The position numbers and the translations under genes were made by a program. Below, piece after piece: positions 24,044 to 24,631 of a DNA stretch of 64,000 nt. Under the pieces are notes generated by a model. The model did not search any database, was not told where the DNA came from, and was given only the letters and a program-made list of their open reading frames with translations. How positions within the stretch are numbered: the stretch's first letter is position 1; the number at the start of each line of letters is the position of its first letter. The stretch comes from Escherichia coli (lineage in GTDB: Bacteria; Pseudomonadota; Gammaproteobacteria; Enterobacterales; Enterobacteriaceae): NCBI RefSeq assembly GCF_030384885.1, contig NZ_CP128613.1; one strand, written 5' to 3'.

Positions 24044-24631
24044 TCAGTTAATTGAATCGATCCATTGCACACTGTCGGCGGTGAGCGTAAAGGGAGTAGG
24101 GGTGCAGATCGCCAGACTTAAATTTTCAAGCTGACAATGGCTGACTGACAGCGAGGACTGATAGGTGCTGTCTACGCTGACGATTTGCCAGGCGCTGCCG
24201 CCACGTTGTTTAACGATGGCTTCTTTGCGTGTCCAGATGCGCCAGAACATTTCCAGTTGCTGATCTGGATGCACGGCGTCCATCTCGGCATGTTCTCCGA
24301 GGCTGAACACCGCGTTCGCCAGCCAGCGCCAGTTGGCACGCGGGCGAATCACTTCGATATCGCAGCCGACTTCGCCCTCATCGCTCAACAGTAGGGCAAT
24401 ATCGTCACCGCTATGGCTTAAGTTGAACCATAGCGGCGTTTCCGGCGCGAATGCAGGTTTGCCTTGTTCGCCATAGATGATCTCCGGTAGCGGGGAAAGC
24501 GTGTGTGAAAGCAATGCACGCCCCGCCAGCCAGCGTTCGCGCCGTGGGCCTTGCGGTGCTTGCTCGCGCAAAGCCGGTGGCAGTGGAGCTGCGCTTAAGG
24601 TCGAAACTTTCCCCAGAACTATCCGATACAT
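24044..24631 (-). CDS. acpT: 4'-phosphopantetheinyl transferase AcpT
   Basis: 195-aa ORF at the acpT position next to nikA; immediately followed, 1 nt away, by the biosynthetic cluster. Confidence 0.85.
   Translation of the reverse strand: MYRIVLGKVSTLSAAPLPPALREQAPQGPRRERWLAGRALLSHTLSPLPEIIYGEQGKPAFAPETPLWFNLSHSGDDIALLLSDEGEVGCDIEVIRPRANWRWLANAVFSLGEHAEMDAVHPDQQLEMFWRIWTRKEAIVKQRGGSAWQIVSVDSTYQSSLSVSHCQLENLSLAICTPTPFTLTADSVQWIDSIN

Follow-up and report, generated by a model that had tools for sequence, protein, structure and literature searches.

The window, by which we mean the whole 64,000-nt stretch of Escherichia coli DNA analysed here, carries on its minus strand an acpT gene at 24044-24631, whose ATG at 24631-24629 opens a reading frame for a 195 amino acid Sfp-type 4'-phosphopantetheinyl transferase (PPTase). 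The RefSeq record of E. coli 2013C-4282, which is 100% identical to the window, names the gene acpT at the same coordinates, and its product matches the NCBIfam AcpT equivalog model NF007676 at 395.4 bits (cut-off 174; residues 1-195 of 195) and the Pfam ACPS family PF01648 with E = 4.5e-11. The group II PPTase signatures (the Mg-binding G-x-D-x-E; W-(S/T)-x-K-E-(A/S)-x-x-K; GKP and SHS) are all found in AcpT, in the motifs GKP (amino acids 57-59), SHSG (72-75), VGCDIE (88-93) and WTRKEAIVK (133-141). These motifs are invariant in an alignment of AcpT orthologues and are kept in 51 of the 51 species that bear the gene cluster described below. An AF2 model of AcpT (pLDDT 87.3, pTM 0.79) finds its best PDB match in a structure of Sfp with CoA and carrier protein (4mrt_A; E = 2.5e-11, TMq 0.70), followed by human AASDHPPT, PptT and PcpS, and AcpS-type chains match only one lobe of the model with E > 0.05. 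The modelled fold is two-lobed, pseudo-dimeric and Sfp-like, unlike the ~120 amino acid trimeric AcpS type, and Sfp is also the closest solved relative of AcpT by sequence; on its motifs and family matches, AcpT is a Sfp-type (group II) PPTase. It has the two-lobed fold and catalytic motifs in common with Sfp (surfactin), EntD (enterobactin) and ClbA (colibactin), and the genes for all of these enzymes are placed with the pathway whose carrier proteins they activate. AcpT differs from the others in its smaller size (195 versus about 225-240 amino acids), in having free-standing type II ACPs as its substrates, and in staying behind as a core gene after pathway loss, which ClbA does not; its identity is only ~20% to Sfp and 28% to EntD (PMC4103896).

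Between acpT and the core gene yhhT (40038-41087, minus strand), which flanks the cluster on its other side, the RefSeq annotation contains eighteen genes, including those for an "ApeI family" and an "ApeP family" dehydratase. Gene set and order are identical to those of the APE_Ec cluster of E. coli CFT073 (Cimermancic 2014; Johnston 2021, PMC8253772), which makes an aryl polyene pigment lipid (PMC8253772), and by this gene content the eighteen genes are an aryl polyene (APE) biosynthetic gene cluster, apeA-apeR. The shared order makes the gene 5' of acpT apeR and the two ACPs ApeE-like and ApeF-like. Common to both clusters are the two ACPs, three KS/CLF proteins, the ApeI and ApeP dehydratases, the ApeH loader and the MMPL and LolA-like export genes; they differ in that APE_Ec as published comprises 18 genes and no dedicated PPTase (PMC8253772), whereas in the window acpT lies 1 nt past apeR.

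All of the cluster genes are on the minus strand. The first four, which are found both in RefSeq and in the list of open reading frames, encode a lipoprotein (apeA, 39269-39646), a methyltransferase (apeB, 38142-39200), a chain-length factor (apeC, 37379-38101) and an acyltransferase (apeD, 36561-37382). Next come the apeE-like gene (36329-36586; 85 amino acids, with its serine in GLDSID) and the apeF-like gene (36066-36317; 83 amino acids, serine in ELDSID). These two reading frames bear out an earlier claim, in a preliminary description made from the sequence, that the cluster encodes two ACPs, since both score above their NCBIfam cut-offs (the phosphopantetheine-binding model NF006617, 90.7 bits against 70, for the ApeE-like protein and NF003757, 144.5 bits against 65, for the ApeF-like protein) and both have the DSI serine. 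The RefSeq genes that follow encode a membrane protein (apeG, 35480-36061), an AMP-binding enzyme with an NCBIfam AMP-ligase match (apeH, 34122-35483), the ApeI family dehydratase (apeI, 33782-34135), a GT2/acyltransferase (apeJ, 32115-33791), a thioesterase (apeK, 31689-32111), a LolA-like protein (apeL, 31087-31692), an MMPL transporter (apeM, 28803-31118), a DUF3261 protein (apeN, 28222-28806), a ketosynthase with an NCBIfam ketosynthase match (apeO, 27051-28220), the ApeP family dehydratase (apeP, 26590-27054) and a ketoreductase that matches NCBIfam FabG2 (apeQ, 25859-26590). The eighteenth gene, apeR (24633-25862), encodes the final ketosynthase, a 409 amino acid protein that RefSeq labels beta-ketoacyl-ACP synthase and that scores 779 bits against NCBIfam NF006587 (cut-off 470). 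We note that apeB and apeA (38142-39646) have a G+C content of 46% and a GC3 of 41-48%, and the rest of the cluster 55-60% and 59-71%, respectively. An AT-rich stretch of 390 nt (39647-40037) that precedes apeA is presumably the promoter/regulatory region of the operon. Within it, just past the yhhT stop codon of this cluster-bearing allele (39985-40030, minus strand), is a terminator-like hairpin with a long loop, AATGGCCAC-(14 nt)-GTGGCCATT, followed by TGATTTG.

The same region is present in E. coli O157:H7 Sakai, where positions 4332287-4348286 form a single blastn match to the window that is 16,000 nt long, free of gaps and 95.5% identical in nucleotides. The cluster is collinear with Sakai ECs_4324-4341, acpT corresponds to ECs_4342, and the yhhT and acpT-nikA flanks are also the same. 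The O157:H7 island between yhhT and acpT, which we take to be O-island 138, therefore has the insertion site, the two ACPs and the TGA-T-ATG junction of the window in common with it. In Sakai, 4347697 is the last position of the ketosynthase gene ECs_4341 and 4347699 the first of acpT, which leaves the same 1-nt gap; from the final 15 nt of apeR through the spacer to the first 12 nt of acpT the Sakai and window sequences are identical, the next base 5' being different. AcpT and the apeR product (ECs_4341) are each 98.5% identical to their Sakai counterparts, the ApeE-like protein 97.6% (ECs_4328) and the ApeF-like protein 96.4% (ECs_4329), and the K-12 protein (YhhU, b3475) shares 97.9% identity with the AcpT of the window. 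In the window strain 2013C-4282 the entire region is a somewhat diverged allele, and a functional difference from the O157 island is not evident. The experiment on the O157 island to which the preliminary description refers is correctly cited there: AcpT activates the EDL933 ApeE and ApeF homologues in vitro (De Lay & Cronan 2006, as summarised in PMC8253772), and the window cluster is the same locus. By that summary, the role of AcpT as activator of the ACPs of this cluster was already published in 2006 and is not new; modification of the ApeE-like and ApeF-like proteins by the AcpT of the window is predicted from the 96-98.5% identity of these proteins to those of Sakai.

The window allele between 22000 and 40000 is unusually divergent for E. 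coli, as the second-best genome has an identity of 98.1% over 18 kb. For acpT the nucleotide identity to nearly all other E. coli is ~96%, and values of at least 99% are found in only two records. Escherichia whittamii and Escherichia sp. E1V33 are among the sources of the most similar AcpT proteins (98% identity), and of these two only E1V33 has the cluster.

The junction of apeR and acpT reads, on the minus strand, ...AAA CGT TGG CCC TGA T ATG TAT CGG..., with the apeR TGA at 24635-24633 and a single spacer nucleotide at 24632. This reading agrees with the earlier statement that acpT starts 1 nt past the stop codon of the last cluster gene on the same strand. A 1-nt spacing by itself is ordinary within operons, and it is the conservation of the spacing (see below) that exceeds chance. 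A scan of 23800-26800 for promoters and terminators found no terminator-like site at the junction; over this interval it gave 2 promoter-like and 2 terminator-like sites, as compared with 2.2 and 3.6 in shuffled sequence. The 22 nt 5' of acpT pair with the 16S anti-Shine-Dalgarno sequence at only -1.5 kcal/mol, where the corresponding values for apeR, apeQ and apeP are -10.0, -8.8 and -10.8 kcal/mol; among the 19 genes only apeM (+0.7) and apeG (-0.8) have weaker Shine-Dalgarno (SD) pairing. The sequence features of a coupled operon member, namely the same strand, a close stop and start, no terminator and a weak SD, are thus all found at acpT. The near absence of an SD together with the TGA-T-ATG arrangement suggests that AcpT is made by termination-reinitiation from apeR, so translation of acpT is probably coupled to that of apeR, and acpT would be co-transcribed with the ape cluster.

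The arrangement is widespread in the Enterobacteriaceae. One genome per species was scanned with an AcpT alignment, which gave 80 species-level loci that were typed by tblastn with the window proteins and by a junction script. In 54 of the 80 loci apeJ to apeR lie directly 5' of acpT, and the genera concerned are Escherichia, Citrobacter, Superficieibacter, Kosakonia, Raoultella, Klebsiella, Enterobacter, Leclercia, Lelliottia, Silvania, Pluralibacter, Kluyvera, Cedecea, Huaxiibacter and Phytobacter. The apeR stop and acpT start are separated by 1 nt in 22 of these loci, by 2 nt in 28 and by 3 nt in one, and overlap by 1 nt in another, so that apeR is intact and the spacing no greater than 3 nt in 52 of the 54; in the other two apeR is interrupted. 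Of the remaining loci, 24 have yhhT instead of apeR 5' of acpT and two end at a contig edge yet retain an apeR tail. On the 3' side, nikA follows acpT in Escherichia and, beyond that genus, at only a few of the 80 loci, in some of the related Citrobacter and Superficieibacter; it is not conserved, which makes the APE cluster, rather than nik, the conserved partner of acpT.

More distant AcpT homologues from a full-library search have the same neighbors. Two of them (P0126 and P0153) were left out of the count, as their contigs are too short to show the 5' gene. Among six informative ones, five that are 35-44% identical to AcpT come directly after the KR and KS genes with which an APE cluster closes: P0143 (43% identity, spacing +2), P0159 (39%, +3), P0167 (39%, -10 nt), P0178 (35%, -1) and P0165 (44% over part of its length, +60 nt). 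The order MMPL, DUF3261, KS, ApeP-like, KR, KS precedes the AcpT homologue in four of these five, where the contig is long enough, and the flanks on the 3' side of the five are mutually unrelated. The sixth, P0183 (37% identical, 231 amino acids), is not linked to a cluster and lies at the edge of the linked clade. AcpT-clade genes would therefore be, in practice, the terminal genes of such APE clusters, which is an addition to the published work.

A few loci and records depart from this picture. Premature stop codons interrupt apeR in Leclercia adecarboxylata NCTC13032 (L054) and Enterobacter sp. EA-1 (L076), in which several ape genes are fragmented, and acpT is truncated in Citrobacter amalonaticus AUH_CA_2023_1 (L074; 157 amino acids) and in L076 (153 amino acids); these three may be decaying clusters or long-read assembly errors. 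Two records are most likely mislabelled or come from contaminated assemblies: L064, titled Chryseobacterium sp. 18061, has Enterobacteriaceae-type acpT and APE sequence under an unrelated taxon, and P0005, an AcpT labelled "partial [Vibrio parahaemolyticus]", is 98% identical to the E. coli protein.

In K-12 MG1655 the locus consists of yhhT, 54 nt and acpT, which confirms that K-12 acpT has no cognate carrier protein gene nearby. De Lay and Cronan (2006; Mol Microbiol 61:232, PMID 16824108) reportedly concluded that K-12 AcpT had been orphaned from its cognate O157:H7 substrates. Homology between MG1655 and the window ends 7 nt before the yhhT stop codon and resumes 16 nt before the acpT ATG, a stretch that consists of the final 15 nt of apeR (AAA CGT TGG CCC TGA) and the spacer. 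This 3' remnant of apeR implies that the K-12-type state arose by deletion of apeA-apeR. The left part of the 54-nt scar has no significant blastn-short match within the cluster; only a gapped alignment hints at similarity to the final ~45 nt of apeR, and the whole scar is likely a decayed apeR tail. We note that the K-12 allele, with only 54 nt between the two genes, does not have the hairpin segment that follows yhhT in the cluster-bearing allele, so its acpT may be transcribed by read-through from yhhT.

Other cluster-less species likewise keep 51-159 nt of a decayed apeR 3' end in front of acpT. This remnant is 51-54 nt long with a similar left end in Escherichia, Salmonella and one Citrobacter group, 62-63 nt in the Citrobacter freundii complex, 134 nt with a clear apeR 3' end in two Enterobacter species, and 80-159 nt in other lineages. 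In Enterobacter asburiae INSAq146 (L070, 5658-10000) the remnant is larger and comprises the 3' half of apeR: an insert of ~3.7 kb with unrelated open reading frames lies between yhhT and codons for apeR residues 218-408 (87% identical), which still abut acpT, and by this layout L070 is a separate rearrangement that again spared acpT. The differing remnants indicate that the cluster was lost several times and that acpT was left each time; there are at least four to five distinct deletion or rearrangement end-points, with acpT spared in all. Insertion of the island beside a pre-existing acpT was considered as an alternative history and was rejected, given the apeR remnant in cluster-less genomes and the synteny across genera. 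The 51-54-nt scars have left ends that are alike in three genera (GGCGACAAGTGATAC, GGCGACAGATGCTAC and GATGACAAATGATAC; Escherichia L003 and L005-L007, Salmonella L026-L027, and Citrobacter L011, L013 and L017), and their similarity suggests either that one very old deletion allele has long coexisted with the intact cluster as a presence/absence polymorphism or that recombination has repeatedly restored the cluster.

The acpT genes that are left behind do not appear to decay. Full-length acpT is present in 5425 of 5426 complete E. coli genomes, and at least 80% of the cluster in 579. None of the 24 cluster-less species loci has a broken acpT reading frame; as the loci were identified by way of AcpT, lineages that lost acpT along with the cluster are invisible in this count. 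Pairwise Nei-Gojobori dN/dS values, calculated within groups that share one scar and have thus diverged without the cluster, are 0.063 for acpT in Escherichia, 0.066-0.077 in Citrobacter, 0.085-0.107 in Salmonella and 0.066-0.095 in Enterobacter, the pairs not being phylogenetically independent. The neighboring yhhT gives 0.031-0.051 in the cluster-less groups, and in cluster-bearing groups the values are 0.077-0.150 for acpT and 0.025-0.059 for apeR. The acpT values without the cluster, 0.063-0.085 taken over the groups, are thus no higher than those with it and are close to those of yhhT. Selection on acpT is not generally relaxed after cluster loss, which argues for an additional role. Of the 24 cluster-less species, 23 keep all of the catalytic residues; Enterobacter sp. 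RIT418 (L079; acpT at 10001-10579, reading frame intact) departs from the others with S74C, G75E, D91S, E137G and G144D and is the sole case of catalytic-residue loss among 77 species. Arginine 98 is substituted in 5 of 24 cluster-less species and in 0 of 51 cluster-bearing ones, and it may be a residue for recognising APE carrier proteins.

The explanation that best fits these observations overall, and that we regard as very probable, is that AcpT activates the ApeE-like and ApeF-like ACPs and that acpT is the terminal gene of their operon. AcpT would move 4'-phosphopantetheine from CoA to the DSI-motif serine of both proteins and so convert them from the apo to the holo form. The holo-ACPs would let the type II PKS-like aryl polyene machinery run, with ApeH for loading, ApeR, ApeO and ApeC for condensation, ApeQ for reduction, and ApeI and ApeP for dehydration. 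The acpT gene would in effect close the aryl polyene operon as its 19th gene; it would share the transcript of the cluster and, its SD being nearly absent, would probably be translated by termination-reinitiation from apeR across TGA-T-ATG; K-12-type genomes would have deleted apeA-apeR and kept acpT with the apeR 3' remnant. On this explanation AcpT would be required for APE synthesis in vivo. Our search of the open literature on AcpT and APE found no report of such an in vivo requirement.

A quite different possibility is that acpT is a bystander, a core or back-up PPTase next to which an APE island inserted between yhhT and acpT, so that AcpS or EntD would modify the ACPs and the junction would be meaningless. 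The gene is indeed core in E. coli and the cluster accessory. The laboratory host Top10 is a K-12 derivative that carries a chromosomal acpT. Also in line with the bystander reading, pigment was obtained in that host from the published 18-gene cluster, defined without a PPTase gene, on a cosmid without acpT (Johnston et al. 2021, PMC8253772), but as the host has its own acpT this result neither proves nor disproves a need for it. Against the bystander reading, had the island inserted there, cluster-less genomes would not have the final 15 nt of apeR, stop codon included, before acpT, adjacency within 3 nt is kept in at least 15 genera and recurs in 35-44% identical homologues with unrelated flanks, and modification of the O157 ACPs by AcpT in vitro has been published (according to PMC8253772). 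The bystander reading is largely refuted by the scar and the synteny, and we consider it highly improbable.

A second role for AcpT is harder to dismiss, and it would qualify only the word "dedicated" without replacing the main explanation. The preliminary description had made AcpT the dedicated activator of the cluster's carrier proteins; the activator part holds, on the synteny and on the in vitro work as summarised in the later paper, but "dedicated" does not, as purifying selection on acpT persists without the cluster, and a strictly dedicated enzyme should decay once its substrates are lost, yet acpT is intact. AcpT may thus be both the cognate activator of the APE ACPs and the bearer of a second, cluster-independent function under selection, a reading to which we give slightly less than an even chance. 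Candidates for the second function are another carrier-protein substrate, back-up of AcpS, or a non-catalytic role in envelope/LpxC homeostasis; we know of no second AcpT substrate. Such a function would explain why acpT is core and the cluster accessory (5425 of 5426 E. coli genomes as against 579), and it is favored by the low dN/dS of acpT in groups that share a scar (0.063-0.107), by the catalytic residues kept in 23 of 24 cluster-less species and by the at least four to five end-points that spare acpT. In addition, acpT in multicopy elevates LpxC levels and suppresses truncations of yejM/lapC, a suppression for which its catalytic activity is not needed (PMC10607373, PMC7240159), but these are over-expression phenotypes and do not establish a physiological second role. 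Against a second function, a locus search based on AcpT hides species without acpT, the pairwise Nei-Gojobori values are phylogenetically dependent, and the cluster is polymorphic within species, so regain by recombination may expose acpT to intermittent selection through the cluster. L079, which has lost D91 and E137, and R98, which varies only without the cluster, also hint at some relaxation. Whether a second substrate or function has been retained in the Enterobacteriaceae after repeated, ancient loss of the cluster (in Salmonella, K-12-type Escherichia, the Citrobacter freundii complex and some Enterobacter) seems to us nearly balanced, with the doubt a little the stronger.

The core claim was established in 2006 and its confirmation changes little. 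What would be new here, on the comparisons above, are the terminal position of acpT across genera, its probable coupling to apeR and the unrelaxed selection on it after cluster loss; these refine the picture and frame a testable question, and leave the status of the activator role as a published result unchanged. The definition of the enterobacterial APE cluster as 18 genes with "no dedicated PPTase" should take in acpT as a conserved terminal gene, which matters when the cluster is moved to hosts without acpT. The selection data also sharpen the question of what AcpT does in the ~89% of E. coli, and in the examined Salmonella (two subspecies loci), that are without the cluster.

On the other side of acpT, 110 nt separate it from nikA. 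There is no terminator-like hairpin 3' of acpT in this spacer, so transcription could conceivably run on from the APE operon into nikA. The spacer also contains, at 23970-23997 on the minus strand and ~40 nt 5' of the nikA ATG, a perfect inverted repeat GTATGA-N16-TCATAC (GTATGACGAATATTTAAAATCGTCATAC), which matches the NikR operator consensus.
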